Assembly (NCBI GenBank): GCA_002490995.1
Contig: DKVC01000195.1
Coordinates: 1 to 60,232 of the forward strand
Length of the DNA: 60,232 nt
Direction: 5' to 3'
From: Lachnospiraceae bacterium UBA7188
Lineage (GTDB): Bacteria > Bacillota > Clostridia > Lachnospirales > Lachnospiraceae
The position numbers and the translations under genes were made by a program. The stretch's first letter is position 1. Each line of letters begins with the position of its first letter. Positions 2,186-17,823 of this stretch are shown piece after piece. Below the pieces are notes generated by a model that made no database searches, was not told the origin of the DNA, and saw nothing but the letters and a program-made list of their open reading frames with translations.

Positions 2186-2236
2186 ATGGATGCTGAGGCT
2201 TATGAGTATAAGACAAAAACAGGAGAAAACCCGGAT

Positions 2237-3184
2237 ATGGAAAGTGTCAGACTGACCCGATTAATCGAAAAAATGAAACTGGAGAACCTAACGCCTGAAA
2301 TCGATGTGAAGGATATCCGCATTACACAGCCGGATGTGAACCGGCCGGCATTGCAGCTGACGGGATACTTTGAGCATTTCGATTCCACACGTCTGGAGAT
2401 CATAGGCTTTGTGGAGTATTCTTATATGGAAAGCATGCCGGATGAGCGGAAGCTGGAAATATACGATGAATTTATGAGCTATGATGTACCGGCAGTGGTA
2501 TTCTGCCGGGAGCTTAAGCCGGATCCGATTTTTCTGAAGGAAGCCATTGCGCACAGGATTCCCGTGCTTATGACCAAAAAGTCTACTTCCGCTTTCATGG
2601 CCGAGGTAATTCGCTGGCTGAATGTAAAGCTTGCTCCCTGCATTTCCGTCCATGGTGTGCTGGTGGATGTCTACGGCGAGGGGTTGCTGATTACCGGGGA
2701 AAGCGGTATCGGAAAGTCCGAAGCGGCGCTTGAACTGGTGCGCCGGGGTCATCGTCTGGTTACGGATGATGTGGTGGAAATCAGAAAGGTCAGTGATGAC
2801 ACTCTTGTCGGTTCTGCGCCGGACATGCTGAAACATCTGATTGAGCTGCGGGGAATCGGCGTGGTGGATGTGAAGGCACTCTTCGGCGCTTCCGCCGTTA
2901 TGGACACGCAGAATATTGATCTTGTTATCCGCCTGGAGGACTGGGACAGAGATAAGGAATATGACAGATTGGGTCTGGAGGAGAATTATACGGAATATAT
3001 GGGCAATAAAGTGGTCTGCTACAATATTCCCATCCGTCCGGGCAGAAATGTAGCCGTGATCTGTGAGTCTGCGGCCGTAAACCACCGTCAGAAGAAAATG
3101 GGCTATAATGCTGCGCAGGAGCTCTATTCCAGGGTACAGAATTCCTTTGCCAGAAAGCGGGAAGATGAGCCGGACCCGTTTTGA
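2237..3184 (+). CDS. hprK: HPr(Ser) kinase/phosphorylase
   Basis: HGVLVDVYGEGLLITGESGIGKSE (Walker A), GHRLVTDD, IELRGIG, PIRPGRN signature; ATG 2237 after AGGAG. Confidence 0.97.
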   Translation: MESVRLTRLIEKMKLENLTPEIDVKDIRITQPDVNRPALQLTGYFEHFDSTRLEIIGFVEYSYMESMPDERKLEIYDEFMSYDVPAVVFCRELKPDPIFLKEAIAHRIPVLMTKKSTSAFMAEVIRWLNVKLAPCISVHGVLVDVYGEGLLITGESGIGKSEAALELVRRGHRLVTDDVVEIRKVSDDTLVGSAPDMLKHLIELRGIGVVDVKALFGASAVMDTQNIDLVIRLEDWDRDKEYDRLGLEENYTEYMGNKVVCYNIPIRPGRNVAVICESAAVNHRQKKMGYNAAQELYSRVQNSFARKREDEPDPF

Positions 3185-3260
3185 TTTATTGTTATATTTC
3201 AGTATGAAACGAACAACACAGCTGTGAGGTAAGCTGTTATAGAGAGGATGGATAAAAGAT

Positions 3261-4199
3261 ATGAGTAAGTATGCATTTGGAGTTGACATCGGGGGAACTA
3301 CTGTTAAGATGGGGCTTTTCGACGGAGAAGGCAATGTGCTGGACAAATGGGAGATTCCCACGGTGAAGGATAATAGCGGCGCTTCTATTCTTCCGGATGT
3401 GGCGGAGAGCATCCTGGCGAAGCTGAAAGAGAAAGAAATCCGGGAAGAAGAGCTGATGGGTGTAGGTGTAGGTGTGCCGGGACCCATGAATGAGGAAGGC
3501 ACGATTCTCGGCGGGGCAGTGAACCTTGGGTGGGGTTCTTTTAACATACCCGAGGCGCTTGGAGCATATATTAAGGTACCGGTAAAAGCTGTGAACGATG
3601 CCAATGCTGCCGCTTTCGGCGAGATGTGGCAGGGGGGCGGCAAAGGATACGACAGCCTGGTGGCGGTAACGCTGGGCACCGGCGTGGGCGGGGGCATTAT
3701 TGTCAGGGGAAAGCTTCTGGTAGGTGCCTTCGGCGCAGGCGGGGAAATCGGGCATGTCCACATTGAGGATGCGGAGACAGAAAGCTGCAATTGCGGAAAT
3801 AAGGGATGTCTGGAACAATATACTTCCGCAACAGGCATTGCCCGTCTGGCGAGGCGATATCTGGAGACGCATGATACCCCCACGGTTTTAAGGGGAGAAT
3901 ATATCTCTGCCAAGACCGTGTTTGACGCGGTGAAGGCAGGAGATGAGGTGGCGAAGGAGATTGCCGGCCAGTTCGGGGATTATCTGGGGAAAGGGCTGGC
4001 CATGGTGGCTTCAGTGGTAAATCCGGAGATCTTCGTCATAGGCGGAGGCGTATCCAGGGCCGGGGAGGTTCTCCTTTCTTACATAGAGCCATATTTCAGA
4101 AAATATTCCTTCGGGAAATGTAAGGAGACAAAGTTTGCTCTGGCAAAGCTTGGCAATGATGCAGGTATTTATGGAGCGGCAGCGCTGGTTTTGCTGTGA
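3261..4199 (+). CDS. glcK: ROK-family glucokinase
   Basis: GVDIGGT, NDANAAAFGE, TLGTGVGGG, GEIGH, CNCGNKGCLE zinc motif. Confidence 0.9.
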   Translation: MSKYAFGVDIGGTTVKMGLFDGEGNVLDKWEIPTVKDNSGASILPDVAESILAKLKEKEIREEELMGVGVGVPGPMNEEGTILGGAVNLGWGSFNIPEALGAYIKVPVKAVNDANAAAFGEMWQGGGKGYDSLVAVTLGTGVGGGIIVRGKLLVGAFGAGGEIGHVHIEDAETESCNCGNKGCLEQYTSATGIARLARRYLETHDTPTVLRGEYISAKTVFDAVKAGDEVAKEIAGQFGDYLGKGLAMVASVVNPEIFVIGGGVSRAGEVLLSYIEPYFRKYSFGKCKETKFALAKLGNDAGIYGAAALVLL

Positions 4200-4226
4200 G
4201 ACAGTAAGGAAAAAGGAAGTAATCAG

Positions 4227-5138
4227 ATGGTCGGCAGAGCAGTAATTGAGGCATTACAAAAGTTTGTACCGCGTGAGAACATTCATCTGCAGGAACCGAT
4301 GGCGGCTCATACTACATTTCGGATAGGAGGGCCTGCCGATTGCTTTTTGGAGTTGGAAAATGAAGAACAGTTGAAAAAAGTGCGGCGATACCTGGAGTTG
4401 ACGGGAGTGTCGTTTTTTGTATTGGGAAATGGAAGCAATCTGCTTGTAAATGACTCCGGATACAGAGGAATTATTCTGCAGATTGGTTCTAAAATGAATT
4501 CTGTTTCAGTACAGGGGAATGATATGATTGCGAAGGCGGGAGCCACGCTGGCACAGGTGGCACGCGCTGCCATGGAGCACGGGCTGACAGGACTGGAATT
4601 TGCTTCCGGCATTCCTGGCACCGTAGGCGGCGGCGTGGTTATGAATGCCGGAGCCTATGGCGGAGAGATGAGCCAGGTGGTGACGCAGGTAAATGTAGTA
4701 AGCAGGGAAGGCGAGCTGCTGGAGCTGGATAACGGGACTATGGAATTCGGGTACCGTACCAGTGTAATCAGGAAGAGTCCTTTTATTGTGACAGAAGTTA
4801 CTTTCCGCCTGAAGCCGGGTGACAGAAGTGTCATAAAAGAGAAAATGGAAGAGCTGGCAGCGCGGCGGAGGGAGAAGCAGCCGCTGGAGTATCCCAGTGC
4901 GGGGAGTACATTTAAGCGTCCCGAGGGGAATTTTGCAGGCAAGCTTATTATGGAAGCCGGGCTGAAGGGGTTCAGGATTGGCGGAGCGGAAGTGTCAGAA
5001 AAGCATTGTGGTTTTGTAGTCAATATGGGAAATGCAACGGCGAAGGATGTGCGGGAAGTGATTGCGGAGATACAGGCCCGGGTTAAGGCACGGTTTCGGG
5101 TAGAGCTGGAGCCGGAGATTGTGTTTCTGGGCTGGTAA
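4227..5138 (+). CDS. murB: UDP-N-acetylenolpyruvoylglucosamine reductase
   Basis: HTTFRIGGPA, LGNGSNLL, GIPGTVGG, MNAGAYG, PSAGSTFKRP, LEPEI motifs. Confidence 0.96.
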   Translation: MVGRAVIEALQKFVPRENIHLQEPMAAHTTFRIGGPADCFLELENEEQLKKVRRYLELTGVSFFVLGNGSNLLVNDSGYRGIILQIGSKMNSVSVQGNDMIAKAGATLAQVARAAMEHGLTGLEFASGIPGTVGGGVVMNAGAYGGEMSQVVTQVNVVSREGELLELDNGTMEFGYRTSVIRKSPFIVTEVTFRLKPGDRSVIKEKMEELAARRREKQPLEYPSAGSTFKRPEGNFAGKLIMEAGLKGFRIGGAEVSEKHCGFVVNMGNATAKDVREVIAEIQARVKARFRVELEPEIVFLGW

Positions 5139-5205
5139 CGGAATTTGGCAGTGCTGTTCACAATGGCATCCACGGCGCAGGCGACATGACGGGAAGTGAG
5201 AAAAC

Positions 5206-6072
5206 ATGAGATTCGTAGTAGTGACGGGAATGAGCGGCGGCGGAAAGAGCACCGCTCTGAAAATGTTGGAGGATGCCGGATTTTACTGTGTGGACAACCT
5301 TCCGGTTTCCCTGATTGAAAAATTTGCGGAGCTGGTTTCCATGCCGGGCAGCGAGGTCGGCAAGGTGGCACTGGGGCTTGACGTGCGCTCCGGCCAGTCC
5401 TTTGAGGAAGTGGCAGGAATCCTGGAAAAGCTGAAAAAAGCAGGCTATAACCTGGAGATCCTCTTCATGGATGCGGAGGATAATGTTCTCATCAAGCGCT
5501 ATAAAGAAACCAGGAGAATCCATCCCCTGGCTGTGGACGGAAGGGTGGAGGATGGCGTCAGGGCAGAGCGGCGGGTGCTTGAAAAAATCAGGCATGACGC
5601 GGACTATGTAATGGATACTTCCCTGCTGTTGACCAGAGAATTAAAAGAAGAGCTTGACCGCATTTTTGTAGAGAATGCAGAGTACAACAGCCTGATGGTG
5701 ACAGTAATGTCATTTGGATTTAAGCATGGAATACCCTCAGATGCCGACATGGTGATGGACGTCCGCTTTTTGCCTAATCCTTTTTATGTGGATGAGTTGA
5801 AATATAAAACCGGTAATGACAGGGAAGTGCAGGAATATGTAATGGGTTTTCCGGAAGCAGAAGAGTTCATGACGAAAATGTCAGATTTGCTTCAGTTTCT
5901 GATACCCAATTATGTCAAGGAGGGAAAGTACCGTCTTGTGATTGCTATCGGCTGTACCGGGGGAAAGCACAGGAGTGTTACCCTTGCCAATGCGCTCTAT
6001 CAGCGGATGAAGGACAGGGGAAAATATGGAATCAAGCTTTATCACAGGGACGTAAAGCAAGAAGGAAAGTAA
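5206..6072 (+). CDS. rapZ: RapZ/YvcJ-family P-loop nucleotide-binding protein
   Basis: TGMSGGGKS, YCVDNLP, ETRRIHPL, SFGFKHG, DVRFLPNP, GCTGGKHRSV. Confidence 0.95.
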   Translation: MRFVVVTGMSGGGKSTALKMLEDAGFYCVDNLPVSLIEKFAELVSMPGSEVGKVALGLDVRSGQSFEEVAGILEKLKKAGYNLEILFMDAEDNVLIKRYKETRRIHPLAVDGRVEDGVRAERRVLEKIRHDADYVMDTSLLLTRELKEELDRIFVENAEYNSLMVTVMSFGFKHGIPSDADMVMDVRFLPNPFYVDELKYKTGNDREVQEYVMGFPEAEEFMTKMSDLLQFLIPNYVKEGKYRLVIAIGCTGGKHRSVTLANALYQRMKDRGKYGIKLYHRDVKQEGK

Positions 6073-6179
6073 AAACGGAAAGTAACAATGGCGCTATCCG
6101 GCCTGCATGGAATGCTGTGATGAGTGTCCGGACGCAACGGAAGGCAGGTGGCGTTCAAAGATCCGGATGAGGAGGGCAT

Positions 6180-7046
6180 ATGTCATTCTCAAGTGAAGTA
6201 AAGGGAGAGCTGGCCAGGCGGATAAGTCCCGCAAGACATTGCCAGATTGCCGAACTGGCAGCAATTATGAATCTGTGCGGCCAGTACGGAAGAGATGAAA
6301 ACGGCGGTTTTACCATCGGATTTCAGACAGAAAATGAAGCTGTCGCCAGAAAAGGCTTTACATTATTGAAAAAAACATATAATATAGATACGGACATTGC
6401 ATTGAAGGAAGAGGACATTCAGGGACTGCTGCGCAAGGTAGGAGATCTGGACAGTCCTGTGAGTCCGCTTTTGATCAAAAATGCCTGCTGTCAGAGGGCT
6501 TTTCTGCGGGGGGCATTTCTGAGCACAGGTTCAATGAGCGATCCGGCAAAGGGATACCATTTGGAATTTGACTGTACCAATGAGGAGAAAGCCGTGCAGC
6601 TGCGGGAATTGATCAGAGGCTTCGATATCGAGGCCAGAATTATCCGCCGGAAAAAGTATCATGTGGTATATCTGAAGGAGGGAGCTGCAATTGTAGATTT
6701 GCTGAATGTATGCGAAGCCCCCGTATCACTGATGAACATGGAAAATCTGCGCATAATAAAGGAAATGAGGAATTCTGTCAATCGGCGGGTAAACTGTGAG
6801 ACAGCAAATATCGCCAAGACTGTATATGCCTCATCCAGGCAGGTGGAGGACATCGAATATATCAGGAAGTATTACGGTTTCCGGAATCTGCCGGATACGC
6901 TGCGGGAGATGGCTGAAATACGTTTGGAATATCCGGATGCACCATTGAAGGAGCTGGGAGAGCATTTTAGTCCTGTTCTTGGGAAATCCGGAGTAAACCA
7001 TAGATTACGCAAGCTGAGCGAGCTTGCGGAAAAAATAAGATTATAA
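6180..7046 (+). CDS. whiA: DNA-binding protein WhiA
   Basis: MSFSSEVKGEL start, AFLRGAFL, NRRVNCETANIAKT, KSGVNHRLRKL. Confidence 0.95.
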   Translation: MSFSSEVKGELARRISPARHCQIAELAAIMNLCGQYGRDENGGFTIGFQTENEAVARKGFTLLKKTYNIDTDIALKEEDIQGLLRKVGDLDSPVSPLLIKNACCQRAFLRGAFLSTGSMSDPAKGYHLEFDCTNEEKAVQLRELIRGFDIEARIIRRKKYHVVYLKEGAAIVDLLNVCEAPVSLMNMENLRIIKEMRNSVNRRVNCETANIAKTVYASSRQVEDIEYIRKYYGFRNLPDTLREMAEIRLEYPDAPLKELGEHFSPVLGKSGVNHRLRKLSELAEKIRL

Positions 7047-7082
7047 AGGTCAGAAAAGAACGGAAGGTAAGGAGGAAAGAAA

Positions 7083-7343
7083 ATGAAAAAGACAAGTATC
7101 AGCATCAGCCTGGAAGATGAACAGATGGCCAGGCACATCGCGTTGCTGGTTCAGAAAGCCAGCAAATACGAAAGTGCTGTTTATATCCAGTCCGGCGGAA
7201 AGAAAGTGAATGCCAAGAGCATCATGGGAATGATGACTTTGGGAATGGACATCAGTGAAGATCTGGAAATTTCAGCAGATGGCTCGGATGAGGATGCAGC
7301 AATCGAAGGAGTTATAACTTTTCTGAAGGGACTTGAAGAGTAA
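7083..7343 (+). CDS. HPr-family protein, Crh-like (His15 replaced by Met, Ser46 retained)
   Basis: Aligns residue-for-residue with HPr; VNAKSIMG places Ser at 46; the position-15 region reads QMARH instead of GLHARP; same position as crh downstream of yvcJ/whiA in Bacillus. Confidence 0.88.
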   Translation: MKKTSISISLEDEQMARHIALLVQKASKYESAVYIQSGGKKVNAKSIMGMMTLGMDISEDLEISADGSDEDAAIEGVITFLKGLEE

Positions 7344-7351
7344 CGAGGACT

Positions 7352-8266
7352 ATGGATAAGAAACTGCTTTTTGTGTACAATCCCAAAGCCGGAAAGGCTC
7401 TCATTAAAAACAGGCTTGCAGATATTCTGGATATTTTTGCAAGGGCCGGTTATGAGACCACTGTAGCTCCTACGCAGAAGCACGGGGATGCCACAGAAGT
7501 GGTAAGCCGGCGCAGCGATGTATATGAGCTTGTGGTGTGCAGCGGCGGGGACGGTACGTTGGATGAGGTAGTGACAGGGATGATCCGGAGCGGTTTCAAC
7601 ACTCCCATCGGTTATATACCTGCAGGCAGCACAAATGATTTTGGGGGAAGTCTTTCCTTGCCGAAAAATATGCTGCATGCGGCGGAAGTGGTTGTGGAAG
7701 GAAAGAATTTTCCCTGTGATATAGGTTCTTTTGCCCATGATGGAGAGAAGGATGTATTTGTCTACATTGCGGCTTTCGGACTTTTTACGGATGTGTCTTA
7801 TGAGACGGCGCAGGACATCAAAAATGTGCTGGGCCATATGGCGTATCTGCTGGAGGGAATGAAGCGCCTGTCATCCATCCGCTCTTACCATGTGAAGGCA
7901 GGCTGGGAAGACAATGAAGTGGAAGATGATTTTATTTTCGGGATGGTTACAAACTCTACTTCAGTGGGCGGTTTTAAGAAAATTACCGGTAAAAATGTGA
8001 AGATGGATGACGGCGTATTCGAAGTGACGCTGATCAAGAATCCGAAAAATCCGGTGGAATTGAATAATATTATGATGTCCCTGCTGAACCGGGATATGGA
8101 TACCAGTGCAATGTACTCTTTCCGCACAGCGGAGCTTACATTGGAATTTGAGGGAGAGGCAGCGTGGACATTGGATGGCGAATACGGCGGCAGCCATACA
8201 AAAGTGGTAATCACAAATGTATGCAGAGGAATTGACATCAGAGTAAAAAACCCGCCTTCCAGATAA
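7352..8266 (+). CDS. YegS/BmrU-family (diacylglycerol kinase-like) lipid kinase
   Basis: VYNPKAGK, CSGGDGTLDEV, IPAGSTNDF, WTLDGE. Confidence 0.92.
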   Translation: MDKKLLFVYNPKAGKALIKNRLADILDIFARAGYETTVAPTQKHGDATEVVSRRSDVYELVVCSGGDGTLDEVVTGMIRSGFNTPIGYIPAGSTNDFGGSLSLPKNMLHAAEVVVEGKNFPCDIGSFAHDGEKDVFVYIAAFGLFTDVSYETAQDIKNVLGHMAYLLEGMKRLSSIRSYHVKAGWEDNEVEDDFIFGMVTNSTSVGGFKKITGKNVKMDDGVFEVTLIKNPKNPVELNNIMMSLLNRDMDTSAMYSFRTAELTLEFEGEAAWTLDGEYGGSHTKVVITNVCRGIDIRVKNPPSR

Positions 8267-8535: not shown

Positions 8536-9399
8536 ATGCTAGTTTCAGCAACAGAAATGCTTAAGAAAGCAAAGGCAGGCCACTATGCGGTAGGCCAGTT
8601 CAACATCAACAACCTGGAGTGGACAAAATCCATCCTGCTGACTGCCAAGGAGTGCAAATCCCCTGTCATCCTGGGTGTATCCGAGGGCGCAGGCAAGTAC
8701 ATGGGCGGTTATCATGCAGTAGTGGGCATGGTGAACGGCCTGCTGAAGGATCTGGACATCGATGTGCCCGTAGCGCTGCATCTGGATCACGGTTCCTATG
8801 AGCACTGCTACAAATGTATCGAAGCCGGATTTTCATCCGTTATGTTCGACGGTTCCCACTATCCCATCGATGAGAATGTGGCGAAGACTACTGAGCTGGT
8901 TGCGGCAGCACACGGCAAGGGAATTTCCATTGAGGCTGAGGTTGGTTCCATCGGAGGAGAGGAAGACGGCGTTGTAGGCATGGGCGAGTGCGCAGACCCC
9001 AAGGAGTGCAAGGCCATTGCAGACCTGGGCGTTGACTTCCTGGCGGCAGGTATCGGCAATATTCACGGCAAATATCCTGCGAACTGGAAAGGACTGAGTT
9101 TTGAGACACTGGATGCCGTACAGCAGCTCACAGGGGACATGCCTCTGGTGCTTCACGGCGGCACAGGCATTCCCGCCGACATGATCAAGAAAGCAATCAG
9201 CCTCGGCGTAGCTAAGATCAACGTAAATACCGAGTGCCAGCTTGCATTTGCCGCTGCTACCCGTAAGTACGTGGAAGAGGGCAAGGATCTCCAGGGCAAG
9301 GGATTTGATCCCCGCAAGCTCTTAGCTCCCGGCGCTCAGGCCATCAAGGATACCGTGAAGGAGAAGATGGAGCTGTTCGGTTCTGTAGGCAAGGCCTGA
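8536..9399 (+). CDS. fba: Class II fructose-1,6-bisphosphate aldolase
   Basis: ALHLDHG, VMFDGSH, GNIHG, LVLHGGTG, KINVNTE. Confidence 0.97.
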   Translation: MLVSATEMLKKAKAGHYAVGQFNINNLEWTKSILLTAKECKSPVILGVSEGAGKYMGGYHAVVGMVNGLLKDLDIDVPVALHLDHGSYEHCYKCIEAGFSSVMFDGSHYPIDENVAKTTELVAAAHGKGISIEAEVGSIGGEEDGVVGMGECADPKECKAIADLGVDFLAAGIGNIHGKYPANWKGLSFETLDAVQQLTGDMPLVLHGGTGIPADMIKKAISLGVAKINVNTECQLAFAAATRKYVEEGKDLQGKGFDPRKLLAPGAQAIKDTVKEKMELFGSVGKA

Positions 9400-9435
9400 G
9401 ACGCAGGTTTCTGTGCCGGACAGGCTGTGGCACAG

Positions 9436-9511
9436 TTCATATTTTGTTAACAGATCATTCAAGCAATATTTGAATTCTTATCATTGTTTAGACATTTCTT
9501 GTGGGTATACT
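9436..9511 (+). promoter_or_regulatory. Promoter of candidate sRNA copy 1 with upstream 11-bp-periodic boxes
   Basis: TATACT at 9506-9511; the upstream 70 bp align without gaps to the promoter of copy 2 (first 17 bp TTCATATTTTGTTAACA identical). Confidence 0.6.
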
Positions 9512-9517
9512 ATATTC

Positions 9518-9623
9518 ATAAGCAACAGATAAAGAACAGACATGATAAGCAGGCCACAGTTACTGAATAACTTTTTCATAATTATAGCCAGGGAACCCCG
9601 GGTTCCCTGGCATCCTCCTTTTT
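9518..9623 (+). ncRNA. Candidate csRNA-like small RNA, copy 1 (5' end approximate)
   Basis: Follows a -10 box; contains GCCACAGTTACTG, AATAACTTTTTCATAAT, an 11-bp hairpin GCCAGGGAACC/GGTTCCCTGGC, then ATCCTCCTTTTT; paralog on the opposite strand at 9969-10075. Confidence 0.62.
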
Positions 9624-9968
9624 ATGGGGATTTCGGACGAAATATCCGGGGATATGTCGGAGGGCATAATTCATACTGCGCACTGGTTCCATTTGCAGTA
9701 TGATATTCGTATTTTGGACAGGACGCCGCCAGCTAACCGGGCTCTTTCTGGATCAGGGCAGAGAGAAGCGCAGACTATGCCAGGGGTGTTTTTTTGTATT
9801 CGGAAATCGCACGGAAGCGGTATTTTGTGGCGGGAAAAAAATCGCTGTCTGCTTACGGTGTTGGGGCTGAATCGGTTTCAGGGGACGGAGTGAAACTGAC
9901 GATATGCATGGAAGAGATTACTGGTAATTGTAAATGCAATCACTGGTATATGAACACAGGAGCCTCTG

Positions 9969-10075
9969 AAAAGGGAGGATGCCAGGAAACTTACGTCCCC
10001 TGGCATTATTATGAAAAAGTTATTTAGTAAACAGTAACTATGGCTGGCACTCTTGTGTGTTTCTGTTCTGTTGAT
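9969..10075 (-). ncRNA. Candidate csRNA-like small RNA, copy 2 (5' end approximate)
   Basis: Minus strand reads GCCATAGTTACTG...AATAACTTTTTCATAAT-A-ATGCCAGGGGAC-GTAA-GTTTCCTGGCAT-CCTCCCTTTT; the GNRA loop and G-U pairs work only in this orientation. Confidence 0.62.
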
Positions 10076-10081
10076 AGTTAT

Positions 10082-10157
10082 AGTATAGGGGAAAGAAATG
10101 TATAAACAATGAGGATTAATTTAAAAATAGTTGAATGAATTGTTAACAAAATATGAA
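10082..10157 (-). promoter_or_regulatory. Promoter of candidate sRNA copy 2
   Basis: TATACT (complement of 10082-10087), with the same 70-bp distance to the identical TTCATATTTTGTTAACA block as in copy 1. Confidence 0.6.
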
Positions 10158-10247
10158 TATCAATCGTTATTGAACTTTGTCAGCCGGAGAACAAGCGGCA
10201 CGCAGGATATCCCGGCAGGAATACAGAAAATATGGAGGTGGCAAGCG

Positions 10248-11912
10248 ATGAATATCATTATCAGGAAAGAAACACCTGCAGATTACCGCATTGTGGAGGA
10301 ACTGACGCGGGAGGCTTTTTGGGGAAGCATGGATCATCCCACCTGCGACGGAGAGCATCTGCTGGTACATAAATTGAGAGCTCTTCCTTCTTTTGTGCCG
10401 GAGCTTGATTTTGTTGCAGAAGCAGACGGAAAAATTGCAGGTCATATCATCTACAGCCTGGCAAAAGTAGTCACGCCGGAGGGCCGGGAAATAGAAGTCC
10501 TAAATTTCGGCCCCCTCAGTGTTCATCCGGACTATAAAAGGATGGGCGTGGGTTCGGCTTTGATGCGCCGCTCCATTGCCGAGGCAGCAGGACTGGGATA
10601 CCGCGCAATCATCATCTACGGGCATCCCGATTATTACCCGAGATTCGGATTCCGGAGAGCAGGCCGGTATGGTATCGTATCCTCCGGCGGAGGCAGCTGG
10701 GACGCGCTGATGGCATTGGAGCTGTACGACGGCGCTTTAGACGGTATTACAGGCCGGTTTATCGAAGACGAAGTCTATGAGGTTGACCCGAAGGAAATGG
10801 CTGAATTTGAAAAAGGGTTTCCCGGCAAAGAACCGGTTCAGCTTCCGCCCGCCACACTGCTGACGGATCAGCTTCCTGAACAGGTAAAACAGTCATTTGC
10901 GCAGCACGGGATCAGGTTTGTATCCCAGCAGCAGCGCTTCAGCGGTGCAGAGCTTCTTAACTGGGACGGCATGGATGAGCAGCTGCTGGTGAAAATCAAC
11001 GGGATATTGTCACAGCTGGGGCAGCCCTGCAAGCTGCTGCCTTCATCCTATATTCTGCAGCTTGCTGAGCTGGGCGTGCGCAATCCGGTTTGCTCGCTGA
11101 TTCGCTCAAAAGCCGGAATCTCTTTGTACCGCGTGGAATCGGAAGGAAGAAAGCTTATTCTGAAGGTTTTTGAGAAAAAGGAAGATGCGCGGGAGATTGA
11201 CAACTACCTGATATTGTCAAAGCTGGAAATACCGACTTTGCCGCTGCTGGGTTACACAAAAAACGCAATATTATTGCCTGATGTAGAAGCAGGCGGTGAA
11301 TACAGGCTTGGCAGAGAAAGTGACCTGAGCGACCCGCAGGCGGCAGGAGCCATTGCCGGATGGTACAAAATGCTTCACAGGAAAGGCAGCGCTTATCTTT
11401 CAGGCAGGGAGGCTCCGATGTATGATGAAGCCGATATGCTTACTGAAGAAAACATGAGGGTAACAGCTGAAAAGACCGGTACTGCGGATCATGTGATATG
11501 GCAGGTGATCGCAGACAACTATGACGATATCCGCAGCCGGATAGATGCTCTGCCCCGGACGCTTGTATACAATGATTTTTACTGGACGAATCTGATTGTA
11601 TCAAAGACCGGTGAAAGCGCGTTCATGTTCGATTACAACTTGCTGGGCAAAGGCATCGCTTATGGTGATATCCGCAATGTAACAGGCTCGCTTTCCCGTG
11701 AGGCGGCGGAAGCATTCATGCAGGAATACGGCGACGATATCGATGAGGAACAGAAGAAAGCGGATGCCTTTATTGCACCTCTTGTTACACTGATTAGTGC
11801 CTGCAGGGAGGAGACTTTCCCCTCATGGGCAAAAACCTCGCTCGAAGAGTTGAAAAACGGCGATGTATTAAAACATCTGAAAAAATGGCTTGGTGTGGAG
11901 GTGGCTGGATGA
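10248..11912 (+). CDS. GNAT acetyltransferase fused to an APH/choline-kinase-like phosphotransferase
   Basis: N-terminal YhbS-like GNAT (IRKET..D, FGPLSVHPDYKRMGVGSALM, GHPDYYPRFGF); C-terminal kinase-like domain (LVYNDFYWTN, MFDYN); ATG 10248 after GGAGG. Confidence 0.75.
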   Translation: MNIIIRKETPADYRIVEELTREAFWGSMDHPTCDGEHLLVHKLRALPSFVPELDFVAEADGKIAGHIIYSLAKVVTPEGREIEVLNFGPLSVHPDYKRMGVGSALMRRSIAEAAGLGYRAIIIYGHPDYYPRFGFRRAGRYGIVSSGGGSWDALMALELYDGALDGITGRFIEDEVYEVDPKEMAEFEKGFPGKEPVQLPPATLLTDQLPEQVKQSFAQHGIRFVSQQQRFSGAELLNWDGMDEQLLVKINGILSQLGQPCKLLPSSYILQLAELGVRNPVCSLIRSKAGISLYRVESEGRKLILKVFEKKEDAREIDNYLILSKLEIPTLPLLGYTKNAILLPDVEAGGEYRLGRESDLSDPQAAGAIAGWYKMLHRKGSAYLSGREAPMYDEADMLTEENMRVTAEKTGTADHVIWQVIADNYDDIRSRIDALPRTLVYNDFYWTNLIVSKTGESAFMFDYNLLGKGIAYGDIRNVTGSLSREAAEAFMQEYGDDIDEEQKKADAFIAPLVTLISACREETFPSWAKTSLEELKNGDVLKHLKKWLGVEVAG

Positions 11913-12380
11913 TGATAACTTTTCACAAATAGATTCTTTGCTGTTTCCGATGCCATATAAGCGGGGCGTAGCCAATGTAATTGTATAACAAGGGGCTGTC
12001 GGGAAATACCATATTGGGACCATCTTAGCCCCTGACGGAAATATTCCCACAAAAATCAGTGTTTCGCAAACATTGTATTTTCTGTGGGAATGTTTTTTCT
12101 TTCTATTTTTCTTTTTCTCCATATTAAAGGGCAACACAAATAAGCCTCTGGCTTATGCAGGGCGCCTTTAAGACCACCAGCCATAGCCGTGGTATGAGCG
12201 ATTTGGTAAATTCTGGCGGTCTTAAGGAAATGTCTTAAAATAATTTGTACAGGTTTATGGAACGTTTTACATCTTTTATCCTGCCTTAGGAAAAATGCAT
12301 AGTACAAATTATTTCGCGACAGTTCCTAAGTATAAAAGTTTTGCCAATTTTGTGCCAGATATAGTTGAAAATGGCACACT

Positions 12381-12716
12381 CTATTTTCTGAATGATACTT
12401 CCATATATTCTTCAGATTTCCTCAGATTCTCCATGTTATCATATATCAGTATATCTATCCGGTTCGGTATATTCTGGCTTCTGATTATTACATACAGCCT
12501 TATGGCATTTAACGTCCACCTATCCATGAATCTGTCCCTTGGCACTATGGCTCTTATGTACACAGTCTGCCAGTCCAAGCTGTCAGCTGCTGAGTCAAAA
12601 TATTGCGCTATCAGCACATCGCTCATTAACTGTTTGTATCTGTAGCATCCGACGGCGGTTGCTAAGAATATTATCAGGCAAATTACAATTGCTGTCTTTT
12701 CAATTCGTTTTTTCAT
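12381..12716 (-). CDS. Small protein with N-terminal membrane anchor, unknown function
   Basis: 111-aa ORF with MKKR followed by a hydrophobic stretch; AAAGGAG RBS upstream. Confidence 0.65.
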   Translation of the reverse strand: MKKRIEKTAIVICLIIFLATAVGCYRYKQLMSDVLIAQYFDSAADSLDWQTVYIRAIVPRDRFMDRWTLNAIRLYVIIRSQNIPNRIDILIYDNMENLRKSEEYMEVSFRK

Positions 12717-12786
12717 TTAGACTCCTTTTTCCAATATTCATTATTGCAACTATGGTTATTGCATAGGCGCCAAGTAAATTTTTAGG

Positions 12787-12858
12787 TTGTGTGGTATACC
12801 ACACAATTTTGCGTCACATCATCTATATAATCAAACTAAATGTGTGACATACCACACA
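12787..12858. promoter_or_regulatory. Paired palindromic operators flanking a TATAAT box
   Basis: Perfect 20-bp palindrome TTGTGTGGTATACCACACAA (12787-12806), near-copy TGTGTGACATACCACACA (12841-12858), TATAAT at 12826-12831. Confidence 0.65.
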
Positions 12859-12879
12859 CTTGGTAGATGGAGGATATAT

Positions 12880-13116
12880 ATGAGCCAGAAGATAAAGCAG
12901 GATTATTGTATAGGCATAAATCTTCGGCGGCTACGGAACCAGGCTGGCCTCACCCAGGAGCAGGTAGCTGCCAGGTTACAGGTGGCAGGGATTGACATGA
13001 CAAGGGATTTCTATGCCCACATCGAAACAGGCGACTATAATATCCGTGTGAGCGAACTGGCTGCACTCAGAAAGATATTCCAGTGTTCCTATGATGAGAT
13101 TTTCCGAGGTTTCTGA
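12880..13116 (+). CDS. XRE-family HTH transcriptional regulator
   Basis: IGINLRRLRNQAGLTQEQVAARL...YAHIETG; ATG after GGAGG. Confidence 0.88.
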   Translation: MSQKIKQDYCIGINLRRLRNQAGLTQEQVAARLQVAGIDMTRDFYAHIETGDYNIRVSELAALRKIFQCSYDEIFRGF

Positions 13117-13866: not shown

Positions 13867-14391
13867 TTAAAGCTTTTCAGGTTCCGGATATTCCACCCCG
13901 AAAGTTTCCACAGTGACACTCTCCATCACCTGATTTTCATAAGGCCTGTCGGAATAGCTGTCAGTAGAAGTCTCGGCGATGCGGTTTACCACATCCATTC
14001 CTTCGATTACTTTGCCGAAGGCCGCATACTGCCCATCCAGATGAGGAGCGGCCTTGTGCATGATGAAAAACTGTGAGCCCGCGGAATCAGGGTGCATGGA
14101 CCTTGCCATGGACAACACGCCTGCTGTATGCTTTAGGTCATTGGGCACACCGTTCTGGCTGAACTCTCCCTTGATGCTGTAGCCGGGGTTGCCCATACCC
14201 GTGCCTTCGGGACAGCCGCCCTGGATCATAAAGCCCCTGATAACCCTGTGAAAAATCAGCCCATCATAGAATTTTTTGTTGATGAGGCTGATGAAGTTGT
14301 TCACGGAGATGGGGGCGATTTCGGGATACAGTTCAAGCTTGATCGTATCTCCGTTCTGCATGGTAATGGTGACAATCGGATTTTTTTCCAT
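13867..14391 (-). CDS. Cyclophilin-type peptidyl-prolyl cis-trans isomerase
   Basis: FYDGLIFHRVIRGFMIQGGCP, LSMAR, SAGSQFFI, HLDGQYAAFG. Confidence 0.95.
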   Translation of the reverse strand: MEKNPIVTITMQNGDTIKLELYPEIAPISVNNFISLINKKFYDGLIFHRVIRGFMIQGGCPEGTGMGNPGYSIKGEFSQNGVPNDLKHTAGVLSMARSMHPDSAGSQFFIMHKAAPHLDGQYAAFGKVIEGMDVVNRIAETSTDSYSDRPYENQVMESVTVETFGVEYPEPEKL

Positions 14392-14421
14392 AATAAATGT
14401 CCTTTCTGATGAGATTCGTGA

Positions 14422-14573
14422 TATAATATGACCATATTTGCGGCAGGAAACAGCCGTATGGCCATCCTGCCATGAGCGTTGCTGTGCTCATTTGGTATAA
14501 CATGACCATATTCCCGGCAGGAAACGGCCGTATGGCCATCCTGCCATGAGCGTTGCTGTGCTCATGGTATAAT
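14422..14573. repeat. Two tandem copies of a ~73-bp REP-like palindromic element
   Basis: Unit TATAAYATGACCATA..GGCAGGAAAC.GCCGTATGGCCATCCTGCCATGAGCGTTGCTGTGCTCAT..GG starts at 14422 and 14496; third copy at 25725. Confidence 0.85.
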
Positions 14574-14624
14574 CAATGATTATAGCGTAAAAACGTCATA
14601 TCGTAAAGAGGAAAGTGAGCGAAG

Positions 14625-15386
14625 TTGATATATTTAAAAGAGAGGTATTTAAAAGAGATAAAGGTAAAAACAGACGGGCAGGAAGGCGTTTTATATGTGA
14701 CAGATGACGCGGAAACTGCGGAAACGCTGCGCAGCCAGGGGGAAGCAGTGCTGGTTTACCTCCATACGGGAAATACAGAGCAGGATTTCTCGAATTTTTT
14801 GTTCGCGGTGGAGGATCCGGAAGGGCTGGAGCCGGAATATGTGGAACGGGTCTACCGCCGCCTGAAAGGGCTTCCCTGGCATATCCTGGAGACCCCCAGG
14901 TGCCTCATCCGCGAGACAACACCGGGGGATGTGGAGGATTTCTACCGCATTTACAGCCATCCCGACATAACGAAATATATGGAAGGCCTGTACCCGGAAG
15001 TGGAGCAGGAGAAACAGTATGTCCGGGAGTATATTGAAAAGGTTTATACTTTTTACGGCTTCGGTGTCTGGACCGTGGTGGAAAAGGAAAGCGGTTCTGT
15101 CATAGGGCGGGCCGGATTCTCTTACCGGGAAGGCTTCGAAGACCCGGAACTGGGCTTTATCATCGGCGTTCCCTGGCAGAGGAAGGGATATGCCAGGGAA
15201 GTATGCCGCGCCGTCCTTTCCTATGGGGCTGCGGCACTGGAATTTACGAAGGTGCAGGCGCTGGTGGAGACGGAAAATACAGCATCCCTGAAGCTGTGCG
15301 GGCAGCTGGGATTTTACCGGGATTCTGCAGTGCGCCTGAATGGGAAAGAATATTATCTGTTATACAGAACAAAAAGCAGCAGATGA
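14625..15386 (+). CDS. RimJ/RimL-type GNAT acetyltransferase with N-terminal extension
   Basis: ILETPRCLIRE, ELGFIIGVPWQRKGYA, ENTASLKLCGQLGF. Confidence 0.85.
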   Translation: MIYLKERYLKEIKVKTDGQEGVLYVTDDAETAETLRSQGEAVLVYLHTGNTEQDFSNFLFAVEDPEGLEPEYVERVYRRLKGLPWHILETPRCLIRETTPGDVEDFYRIYSHPDITKYMEGLYPEVEQEKQYVREYIEKVYTFYGFGVWTVVEKESGSVIGRAGFSYREGFEDPELGFIIGVPWQRKGYAREVCRAVLSYGAAALEFTKVQALVETENTASLKLCGQLGFYRDSAVRLNGKEYYLLYRTKSSR

Positions 15387-15459
15387 ATCATTCTCAATTA
15401 CTATTTGCGCCAATAGACAAAACTTTTGCTATTGGCGCATCAATATCCGAAATTTCCGT

Positions 15460-16332
15460 TTATTCCCCGCCATAGAAAATCTGCGCAATGGGCGAATCCG
15501 GGGAAAGGATAACCGTCTTCCGGTTTCCCTTCATGGAAGCCTTCAGCGCGTCCAGGCTTCTGACAAAGGAGTAGAATTCCTGCTTGGAAGGGTCGTTGTA
15601 AGCCTCGGAAAGGATTCTCATGTACTCGGCTTCGCCTTCCGCGATCTGGATGGCGGCTTCCTTCTCTGCTTCGGAGAGAAGGACGGTTACTTCCTTGTCC
15701 GTGGTATTTCGGATGATCTGTGCCTCGGAGCTGCCTTCTGCGGTATAGGTGGCGGCAATATTGTCGCGCTCGGAAATCATACGCTCATATACGGCGGCCT
15801 TATTGTCCCCGGGCAGGTCAAGCTTTTTGGTCTCAAAGGACAGCAGGGTGATGCCGTACTGATCCAGGGAAGTGCCGATGTTGGCAATAATGGACGAGGA
15901 CAACTGTCCGTTGCGCCCTGAAATCACATCGTCCTGGGAGGTGCTGCTGATGATATTTTTAGTAGAGTTATATACAATGGCATCCAGCCTCCCCTCCGCG
16001 TTGGTGATGGAGGAATTCAGGGTCTGGGCGAATTTCAGGGGATCTGTAATCCGCCACAGGATGTAACTGTCACAGATCATGGTCTTCTTGTCGCTGGTGA
16101 TGACATCGGAGGCAGGCAGATCGTAGAGCAGTACCTGCTTGGGCAGTTTATCCACGCTCTGGATAAAGGGAATCTTGAAACTGATGCCGGCATCCGCCAC
16201 CACATGGTCGATTTTTCCGAACTGGCGGATCAGGCTGTATTCGTTTTCCTGGGTGACTACCAGGCTGGATGCGCCGATAATGAGGGCGGCGAATACCAGG
16301 ACAATCAGGGCTATTCTTCTGACAGCTTTCAT
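15460..16332 (-). CDS. hflC: FtsH protease modulator HflC (SPFH)
   Basis: N-terminal TM, FKIPFI, VITSDKK, YERMISER, FYSFVRSL. Confidence 0.9.
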   Translation of the reverse strand: MKAVRRIALIVLVFAALIIGASSLVVTQENEYSLIRQFGKIDHVVADAGISFKIPFIQSVDKLPKQVLLYDLPASDVITSDKKTMICDSYILWRITDPLKFAQTLNSSITNAEGRLDAIVYNSTKNIISSTSQDDVISGRNGQLSSSIIANIGTSLDQYGITLLSFETKKLDLPGDNKAAVYERMISERDNIAATYTAEGSSEAQIIRNTTDKEVTVLLSEAEKEAAIQIAEGEAEYMRILSEAYNDPSKQEFYSFVRSLDALKASMKGNRKTVILSPDSPIAQIFYGGE

Positions 16333-16710
16333 AGTTAACCTCCTCTTATTTTTACAGGGGTGCAGATATTTTCCGGAGAATTTATCTGTCCGCTTTCTAC
16401 AGTTTTTATTTCCCGCAGACTGCTGCGGGGGGCTCCCTGTTCTCTGTGCAGGGACTTCTTTATGCGAAAAGATTTTGTCGCATTACAGCTGTGGCGTTTT
16501 CCGCAGGATTAAAGGTCTGTGATTACAAGTTCTCAAGACCACTGGAATTTACTAATCTGTCTGCGGCGGGCAATATATGGCTGGCGGTCTTTCGATGGTG
16601 GTTACTGCCAGTTTCAACGGCGTGCAGCATACATCAGTTATGTCAGCTCACCGGGAGCCGTTGTATCGGGACACTTCGGCGATGCGCACTCAAGTGTGCG
16701 GCGAATCGTT

Positions 16711-17823
16711 TTATTCCTGGGGCTGAGTGCTGTCTGCCGCCGAGGGACCGATGCCTGAGGCATTGTTTGTGGTACCCGTATTTGTGCCTACATTTGTGCC
16801 TGTATTTGTATCTGTGGTTGTGCCGGCATTGTCCGCATCGCTTCCGGTGAAGGATTCAATGGGATAAATCGTCTGCATGTTGCCGCTGGGGCTTTCAATG
16901 ATGACCTTCAGGTCGGGCAGCACATCTTCCATTGTCTCGTAGAACATCCGCTGTTTTGTGATGACAGGATTTTTAATATATTCCGCATACATGGAGTTAA
17001 AACGCGCTACCTGGGCGGTTGCTTCGTTGACGCGCTCGGTTTTCTGGGCTTCGGCGTCCTTGATGATGCCGTCAGCCCGGGCCTGGGCGGAGGGAAGCTG
17101 CTCGTTGCGGTATTTGTTGGCATTATTCAGGGCCGTTTCCTTGCCCTGTTTTGCCGTCTCCACTGCCTTGAAGGCTTCCATGACCTGCTGGGTGGGCGGC
17201 TCGGAGTCCTGGATGGTGATATTGACCAGCTGGATTCCAATATTCTGTTCCTCCAGGCGCTTCAGAATCATTTCGCGGATAGATGCCTGGATTTCGTTTT
17301 TGCCGGTGGTCAGCACATCGTCCACAGGATAGCTGCCGATGACGGTGCGGATACAGCTCTGACTGATGTTTTTCAGGATTTCCAGAGGATCCCTGGAAGC
17401 GAAAACAGCTTTTACAGGATCGCTGTAGCGGTATTCCACATAGAAATCCACGTCGATAAAGTTGAAATCCGAGGTGATCATCAGGGATTCATCCTCATTG
17501 ATCTCATTGTCATCCGTGCTGTAGCCGATGGCAAAGCCTTGGATTGTGGTGTTTACCTTTCTCACCTGCTGGATGAAAGGAATCTTGAAGTGAAGTCCCG
17601 GTTCCGTGACCGCCTGCGCCTTGCCCAGGGTGATCAGCACTGCCTGTTCCTGCTCCTTGATTTCGTAAGCGGAATTCAGGCCCAGGAAAACGAGGACGAC
17701 TGCCAGTACTGCAAGGACGGCTATTTTGCCTCCTGCCTTTTTGGGTTTGGGCTGCGCGCCTCCTTCGCCATTGTTTACCGTTTCAAATCCGTTTTTAAAG
17801 TTGCCAAAAGAACCATTTTTCAT
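16711..17823 (-). CDS. hflK: FtsH protease modulator HflK (SPFH) with Thr/Asn/Gly-rich tail
   Basis: PGLHFKIPF, ESLMITSD, PPTQQVMEAF, A..YRNE.LP.A, RMFYETME; upstream of hflC. Confidence 0.9.
   Translation of the reverse strand: MKNGSFGNFKNGFETVNNGEGGAQPKPKKAGGKIAVLAVLAVVLVFLGLNSAYEIKEQEQAVLITLGKAQAVTEPGLHFKIPFIQQVRKVNTTIQGFAIGYSTDDNEINEDESLMITSDFNFIDVDFYVEYRYSDPVKAVFASRDPLEILKNISQSCIRTVIGSYPVDDVLTTGKNEIQASIREMILKRLEEQNIGIQLVNITIQDSEPPTQQVMEAFKAVETAKQGKETALNNANKYRNEQLPSAQARADGIIKDAEAQKTERVNEATAQVARFNSMYAEYIKNPVITKQRMFYETMEDVLPDLKVIIESPSGNMQTIYPIESFTGSDADNAGTTTDTNTGTNVGTNTGTTNNASGIGPSAADSTQPQE

Follow-up and report, generated by a model that had tools for sequence, protein, structure and literature searches.

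In the window, by which we mean the complete 60,232-nt stretch of Lachnospiraceae bacterium UBA7188 DNA that was analyzed, the gap between fba and a GNAT/phosphotransferase ORF (from position 10248 on the plus strand) is occupied by two inverted copies of one unit (Table 1). Over 196 nt, a span that includes a promoter of about 80 nt, the copies agree at 74% of positions (E = 1e-23), and their 17-nt anti-start-codon arm is identical. A third copy is absent from the 4.97-Mb assembly (311 contigs, 88% complete), as judged by blastn/nhmmer and covariance-model searches. An initial annotation of this DNA had listed a TATACT box, two arms, stems, and ATCCTCC followed by a T run, and each of these motifs stands in both copies where it had been placed. 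Judged by sequence and predicted structure, the inverted copies are an uncatalogued Lachnospiraceae sRNA-type gene, and its product is a predicted sRNA.

Table 1. Positions of the two copies of the predicted sRNA gene, their parts, and two neighboring genes in the window.
Feature	Position	Strand	Remarks
fba, class II fructose-bisphosphate aldolase (Pfam F_bP_aldolase)	8536..9399	+	Conserved neighbor
Copy 1, operator	9435..9495	+	Six in-phase hexamer repeats; predicted OmpR/PhoB-type activator site
Copy 1, -10 box TATACT	9506..9511	+	Predicted start ~9518
Copy 1, predicted sRNA	9518..9636	+	Covariance model 69.7 bits
Copy 1, anti-start-codon arm	9566..9582	+	CAT = 9577-9579
Copy 1, central covarying hairpin	9587..9611	+	11 bp, all Watson-Crick
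Copy 1, anti-SD arm ATCCTCC, T run, and small 3' hairpin	9612..9633	+	Weak terminator candidate
Copy 1, predicted 3' end	~9623 or ~9633-9636	+	At the T run or past the small hairpin
Copy 2, predicted 3' end	~9969 or ~9960-9955	-	
Copy 2, predicted sRNA	9955..10075	-	Covariance model 78.9 bits
Copy 2, anti-SD arm, T run, and small 3' hairpin	9963..9980	-	Without U-rich tail
Copy 2, central hairpin	9981..10004	-	10 bp, two G-U pairs, GUAA loop
Copy 2, anti-start-codon arm	10008..10024	-	15 nt from arm to stem base identical to a csRNA core
Copy 2, -10 box TATACT	10082..10087	-	Predicted start ~10075
Copy 2, operator	10098..10158	-	Six in-phase hexamer repeats
ppiB-type cyclophilin	13867..14391	-	Usual upstream neighbor in homologs; here 3.7 kb off

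Copy 2 lies on the ppiB strand and is convergent with fba, which is the ancestral orientation; since this orientation is common among homologs, copy 1 is probably the duplicate. While ppiB and the sRNA unit adjoin in many homologs, about 3.7 kb part them here (10131-13116; GNAT/phosphotransferase fusion, small ORFs, XRE-type regulator), and this stretch looks like a lineage-specific insertion. The region 13867-17823 holds the cyclophilin gene together with hflK/hflC (protein quality control), and rapZ, whiA, and a lipid kinase gene lie on the other side (2186-8266). A segment of about 35 nt in the spacer between the copies (9665-9705) has around eight similar matches elsewhere in the assembly and is a small dispersed repeat. 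Eight public RNA-labelled runs consist throughout of assembled contigs; in some cases these span fba through the promoter, and they are uninformative on transcript ends, strand, and level.

With blastn, 34 of 36 congeners proved to carry the unit, and 24 genomes belonging to different families of the same order yielded nothing but a single weak match of 25 nt. Scanning GTDB genomes for a sequence pattern brought up at least 122 loci (about 670 estimated), of which nhmmer confirmed 100 and 22 were discarded; among the matches listed, nearly all confirmed loci came from Lachnospiraceae (Acetatifactor, Kineothrix, Roseburia, Butyrivibrio, and others). The covariance model, for which 69 of the 138 unique copies were used, matched 76 of 150 Lachnospiraceae genomes at E ≤ 0.01, with one genome taken per genus, and only 4 of 146 genomes outside the family but in the same class, where the matches were weak (E 0.002-0.007) and devoid of the architecture. 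The gene is restricted to Lachnospiraceae, with matches at chance level outside. Most genomes carry a single copy; more than one near-full-length match was found in just 2 of the 34 positive congeners, so that the redundant multi-copy family envisaged in the initial annotation is the exception.

The position of the gene is conserved. Among 107 copies with flanking sequence, 44 lie downstream of a same-strand cyclophilin gene, 22 face fba, and 11 follow fba. According to crude ORF calls, the downstream ORF is on the opposite strand in 58 cases and on the same strand in 46, and is lacking in 3; this varied strand argues for an independent gene. Together with the promoter of its own and the selected structure described below, this agrees with the proposal of a separate, presumably trans-acting sRNA gene. 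Conversely, it is highly improbable, and largely refuted, that the copies represent a cis element, be it a terminator or leader, the end of a mobile element, or an antisense small ORF. Such an interpretation could draw on the inverted-repeat arrangement of the copies around a 330-nt spacer, on the opposite strand, which reads SD, hairpin, and ATG-Lys-Lys-Leu, and on the main hairpin of copy 2, which scores as terminator-like. It is opposed by the conserved promoter and the fixed position beside ppiB/fba, and by the paired copies in relatives, which are arranged either convergently or in tandem, 8-1108 nt apart and with unrelated sequence in between. No plasmid match was found, and one partial match to a phage record was obtained. 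The antisense-ORF, leader, and MITE readings were rejected on account of the fixed synteny, the promoter, and the opposite-strand ORFs, which span 4-41 codons with no frame kept. With two copies, fixed synteny, and variable pair geometry, a mobile-element end, which the initial annotation had named as an alternative, does not fit the locus. Positions 4324-4392 of MT837532.1, an unannotated 6.7-kb 'Bacteriophage sp.' record, match the 3' core and are possibly host DNA.

The predicted RNA has the same layout throughout the family: a variable A-rich 5' part leads into a near-invariant arm ending in CAU-AA, which is followed by a hairpin of 10-11 bp with a variable loop and by an invariant C-rich 3' arm with a U run. 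Since the loci from the pattern scan are biased by the search pattern, we counted arm conservation on the copies found by blastn and by the covariance model. The copies found by blastn carry no such bias, and among them the first arm is present in 32 of 33 and the second in 33 of 33; among 70 divergent members found with the model, TTTTCATA and the C-rich 3' arm are each kept in 68, the related sequences in such counts not being independent of one another. The stem sequence varies among these 70 members while both arms persist. The anti-AUG and anti-SD arms of the initial annotation are therefore conserved in their own right, and not merely the hairpin. Less durable were the 5' motifs CAACAGA and GCCAYAGTTACTG: both occur in the two copies as described, but they are weakly kept family-wide (mostly <0.5 bit, at -45 to -18 of CAT).

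Selection on the structure is evident from covariation. The main helix is 97% paired and shows double-sided changes at 8 of 12 pairs; within the window, G-C and A-U pairs of copy 1 correspond to the two G-U pairs of copy 2, as had been recognized before. The covariation score was 0.317 compared to 0.126, none of 500 shuffles reached the score of the main helix, and slid-register controls gave at most 0.09 compared to 0.32, all of these scores being inflated by relatedness among the sequences. The base of the stem (GCC/GGC) and its length of 10-11 bp are conserved. Measured against shuffled sequences, the proposed strands fold better, with z-scores of -3.5 (copy 1) and -3.2 (copy 2), whereas the opposite ones do not (-1.5 and -1.4). 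In a register chosen from Watson-Crick pairs alone, we counted 34 G-U but only 3 A-C combinations, an excess that favors the sRNA strand; both measures thus agree with the orientation given in the initial annotation. Families of Rfam 15 matched neither the window at gathering score nor positions 9380-10260 at E ≤ 10, and the absence of a known Rfam family that the initial annotation had anticipated was therefore borne out.

The 3' end of the RNA can be placed in two ways. In most homologs, a small CCC/GGG hairpin and a U-rich tail follow the T run, and in 123 of the 138 copies the C-rich arm is able to pair with downstream G's ahead of a U-rich tail. Because this small 3' helix is 76% paired and displays no covariation, the transcript may end either at the U run (~105 nt) or at ~120 nt. 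The length of ~105 nt originally suggested is consequently possible, but so is ~120 nt if the small hairpin is included. In the long form, the CCC of the anti-SD arm is predicted to be paired within the small 3' hairpin (median probability 0.97), so that the anti-SD would be partly masked at ~120 nt.

The similarity between the copies continues about 70 nt upstream of the -10 box as six in-phase 11-bp repeats. These comprise six hexamers with an 11-bp period, the last of which ends 10 nt before TATACT, and 132 of the 138 unique copies keep the same register. Divergent members frequently show a pair of strong repeats, placed directly 10 nt before the -10 box. When a matrix trained on 37 sRNA promoters from other genomes was run over the host genome, the two copies ranked first and second, and the third-ranking site was the promoter of C195:168-1493, which codes for an HtrA-type protease with trypsin and PDZ domains that scores below the curated NCBIfam cut-offs. 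At a threshold of 11 bits, the box was found in 17 of the 30 best-scoring family htrA upstream regions (the host's own included), compared to 8 of 4827 upstream regions of the host genome and 0 of 600 shuffles; the other 13 of the 30 htrA regions scored <11 bits. The hexamers differ between the two groups, sRNA promoters being richer in CAT and htrA promoters richer in CAC. A combined matrix devoid of host sequences retrieved htrA, copy 2, and copy 1, in this order, and then two ORF-less units, C238:4196(-) and C299:28940(+); a four-box matrix found only the two copies in the host genome.

Both ORF-less units resemble sRNA genes. C299:28940-29110 (+) is an sRNA-like unit of about 85 nt with the same box that is present in 52 of 60 congeners, often in tandem, and in all 22 copies inspected the box is accompanied by a hairpin at the 5' end, a C-rich single-stranded stretch that contains CAU, and a strong terminator. 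C238:4196-3900 (-) is of variable length and occurs in 14 of 40 congeners; it has a U-rich/CAU and C-rich 3' part and a terminator, and the box is found in 12 of 15 loci inspected, the host's included. Neither has a significant Rfam match, and we regard them as two more uncatalogued candidate families of boxed, sRNA-like units. The sRNA gene thus likely belongs to an htrA regulon, in which it has at least two candidate siblings. The promoter repeats, the box common to htrA, and the two sibling families had escaped the initial annotation. Weaker boxed promoters precede an ABC ATPase gene in two instances, C227:38167(-) and C63:2264(+), as well as a 616-aa ORF (C310:10353(-)) and a membrane-anchored 362-aa ORF (C274:11960(+)), and these genes are possible regulon members.

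The host has 32 full OmpR-type domains, and no convincing box was seen upstream of any of the 31 OmpR-type genes scored. A weak apparent box before a regulator gene on contig C247 was rejected, the invariant CA positions being absent. As a low-confidence lead, C223:979-4337 encodes an OmpR-type regulator together with its likely histidine kinase, and also a lipoprotein with a start region complementary to the sRNA. Sites of the OmpR family look alike, and the hexamers of the sRNA promoters resemble pho boxes; the RNA might therefore be a genuine anti-TIR sRNA that answers to another signal, such as phosphate starvation (PhoP/PhoB), with the htrA match being a generic OmpR-family site. We consider this distinctly unlikely. 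The sole pstS-like gene and a Na/Pi transporter gene with a PhoU domain lack the box (-21.7 and -13.4), the only two such genes in the 88% complete assembly, and a phosphate regulon is therefore not supported; moreover, htrA is the top non-self match, and the box is conserved family-wide.

To predict targets, we scored duplexes of both arms against 5063 called translation starts of the host. Although pgsA gave the best score (-33.1 kcal/mol), it was rejected as a dedicated target since the complement is lost in most of 29 congeners; ppiB was likewise discarded, its start not being a conserved complement. No single conserved target emerged from the host starts. Lipoproteins, in contrast, made up 21 of the top 100 partners against a background of 4.9% among 2979 ATG starts with an SD, an enrichment of about fourfold. 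The anti-SD arm alone retrieved 8 lipoproteins in the top 100, the anti-AUG arm alone 13, and 14 shuffled arms 5-15. A lipobox accompanies 31 of the 122 ATGAAAAA starts but 116 of the 2857 others; among the top 100 partners, just 11 begin with ATGAAAAA. The gene calls and the lipobox and hydrophobicity rules behind these counts are crude heuristics, and short ORFs are poorly called by them. A search for perfect complements was positive in 74 of 150 family genomes; among 30 such loci that we inspected, 25 have a hydrophobic N-terminus and 12 a lipobox, and they belong to varied protein families. In 5 of 6 complexes inspected by cofolding, the hairpin was kept and both arms were paired. The exported proteins that the initial annotation had expected are thus enriched among the predicted partners, and the sRNA is predicted to block the translation of many of them.

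It is unlikely, in our view, that an sRNA with this same box serves one or a few dedicated targets, e.g., the precursor of a signaling peptide. There is a precedent, as the streptococcal csRNAs repress comC by pairing and act on a few transporters besides, according to the available part of the pertinent report (PMC4507080). The near-invariance of the arm up to the fourth codon position also suggests a fixed partner, and a short ORF might have slipped through the gene calls. However, no small-peptide target stood out, a single one of 728 small ORFs with an SD ranking in the top 60, and both the varied families of the 30 perfect-complement genes and the unconserved complements at pgsA and ppiB speak against a dedicated partner.

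Regulatory systems with related features are known from other bacteria. The CssRS system of Bacillus subtilis has a similar repeated operator octamer. Its regulon (htrA, htrB) is alike in that a two-component system controls htrA under secretion stress, and an sRNA member is not mentioned in the portion of the report at hand (PMC8767453). LhrC1-5 of Listeria, as far as the accessible text describes them (PMC4132741), are controlled by the envelope-stress two-component system LisRK, carry a UCCC anti-SD motif, and block translation of a surface-protein mRNA; they possess three redundant CU-rich sites, whereas the Lachnospiraceae RNA has a bipartite anti-AUG/anti-SD seed and no Rfam match.

The closest resemblance is to the streptococcal csRNAs (Ccn, CiaRH regulon, RF02379). 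In the sections available of PMC3091779, CiaR controls both htrA and the csRNAs, whose promoters share the repeat-N5-repeat-N10-(-10) geometry with those of the Lachnospiraceae family, and a conserved [A/C]UCCUAAA stretch is given as a csRNA feature. A box common to htrA and several sibling RNAs per regulon are further points of likeness. Moreover, 15 nt of copy 2 up to the stem base (anti-start codon) and 7 nt after it (anti-SD) are identical to the core of an RF02379 member, and the Lachnospiraceae seed can accordingly be regarded as a csRNA-type core interrupted by a hairpin; in this respect, the csRNA-like logic proposed in the initial annotation holds. Differences are equally clear. The csRNA hexamer is TTTAAG, while the Lachnospiraceae family uses CAY-type hexamers in up to six repeats; its seed is split by a covarying hairpin of 10-11 bp, it has no conserved 5' stem-loop, and it is usually single-copy at a fixed ppiB/fba locus and found in Lachnospiraceae only. 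A CiaR box TTTAAG with the G kept, 10 nt before the -10 box, occurs in 1 of 132 family promoters, and the [A/C]UCCUAAA nonamer in 0 of 138 copies. RF02379 produced no match at the locus at E ≤ 10; as a positive control, 2 of 3 tested csRNA loci found with a published probe matched it at 91.6 bits. The covariance model of the Lachnospiraceae family gave csRNA loci only 15-21 bits. Since the tests for the CiaR box, the nonamer, and Rfam fail, we do not file the RNA as a csRNA, despite its apparently csRNA-like mode of action.

These comparisons also bear on whether the arms are antisense seeds at all. A structured RNA acting as a decoy for a protein or the ribosome, with the arms as binding sites, would account for the conserved stem base and stem length, and the C-rich arm may be occluded. 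Yet the two stretches that are conserved best are precisely those complementary to an SD and to a start codon followed by lysine codons, and both match the core of the csRNAs, a family shown to act by pairing (PMC4507080, in the part available); we therefore deem a decoy very improbable.

On balance, we consider it probable that the inverted copies are duplicates of a Lachnospiraceae-wide gene for a 105-120-nt sRNA that is co-switched with htrA by an OmpR-type regulator, pairs with the starts of many exported-protein mRNAs, and blocks their translation. Under stress on the envelope or on secretion, an activator would occupy the 11-bp repeats, which would stand in for a -35 element; we infer this signal from the link to htrA and from the likeness to CiaRH, CssRS, and LisRK. 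The start codon and the lysine codons right behind it would then be bound by the U-rich arm with CAU, and the Shine-Dalgarno sequence by the C-rich arm; the hairpin between the arms would remain closed and form a third helix. Signal peptides are marked by lysine-rich starts, and the sRNA would therefore ease the burden on the export pathway, with HtrA removing misfolded proteins at the same time. A further-reaching version, which we put forward tentatively and think rather unlikely, holds that Lachnospiraceae possess a multi-sRNA secretion-stress regulon of htrA and at least three unrelated anti-TIR sRNA families. In it, the RNA described here would recognize exported proteins as a class by the lysine codons in their signal peptides and throttle them wholesale via a hairpin-split seed; the core would share an ancestor with the streptococcal csRNAs, and the module would be ancestral to both Bacilli and Clostridia.

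Among gut commensals, Lachnospiraceae are a dominant group, and we found no characterized regulatory RNA of this kind for them in the literature searched. That literature, which was thin on subscription journals, contained no description of the present family either. Its motifs are absent from the available part of the tables of candidate structured RNAs by Fremin and Bhatt (2021; PMC8040213), and the family may be among the candidates of that study. What emerges is a family-wide predicted sRNA with a defined promoter, a seed, a co-regulated gene, and two sibling candidates. If the preferred explanation is true, envelope-stress two-component systems driving HtrA and anti-TIR sRNAs would extend from Streptococcus and Listeria to Clostridia. 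The likeness to the csRNAs could reflect either homology or convergence on a common target sequence, a question that the family poses clearly. The RNA would also be a naturally occurring case in which a hairpin divides a seed. Divergent subfamilies show the same architecture with other stem sequences and with promoters of two to four repeats, and one family genome contains up to 7 covariance-model matches.
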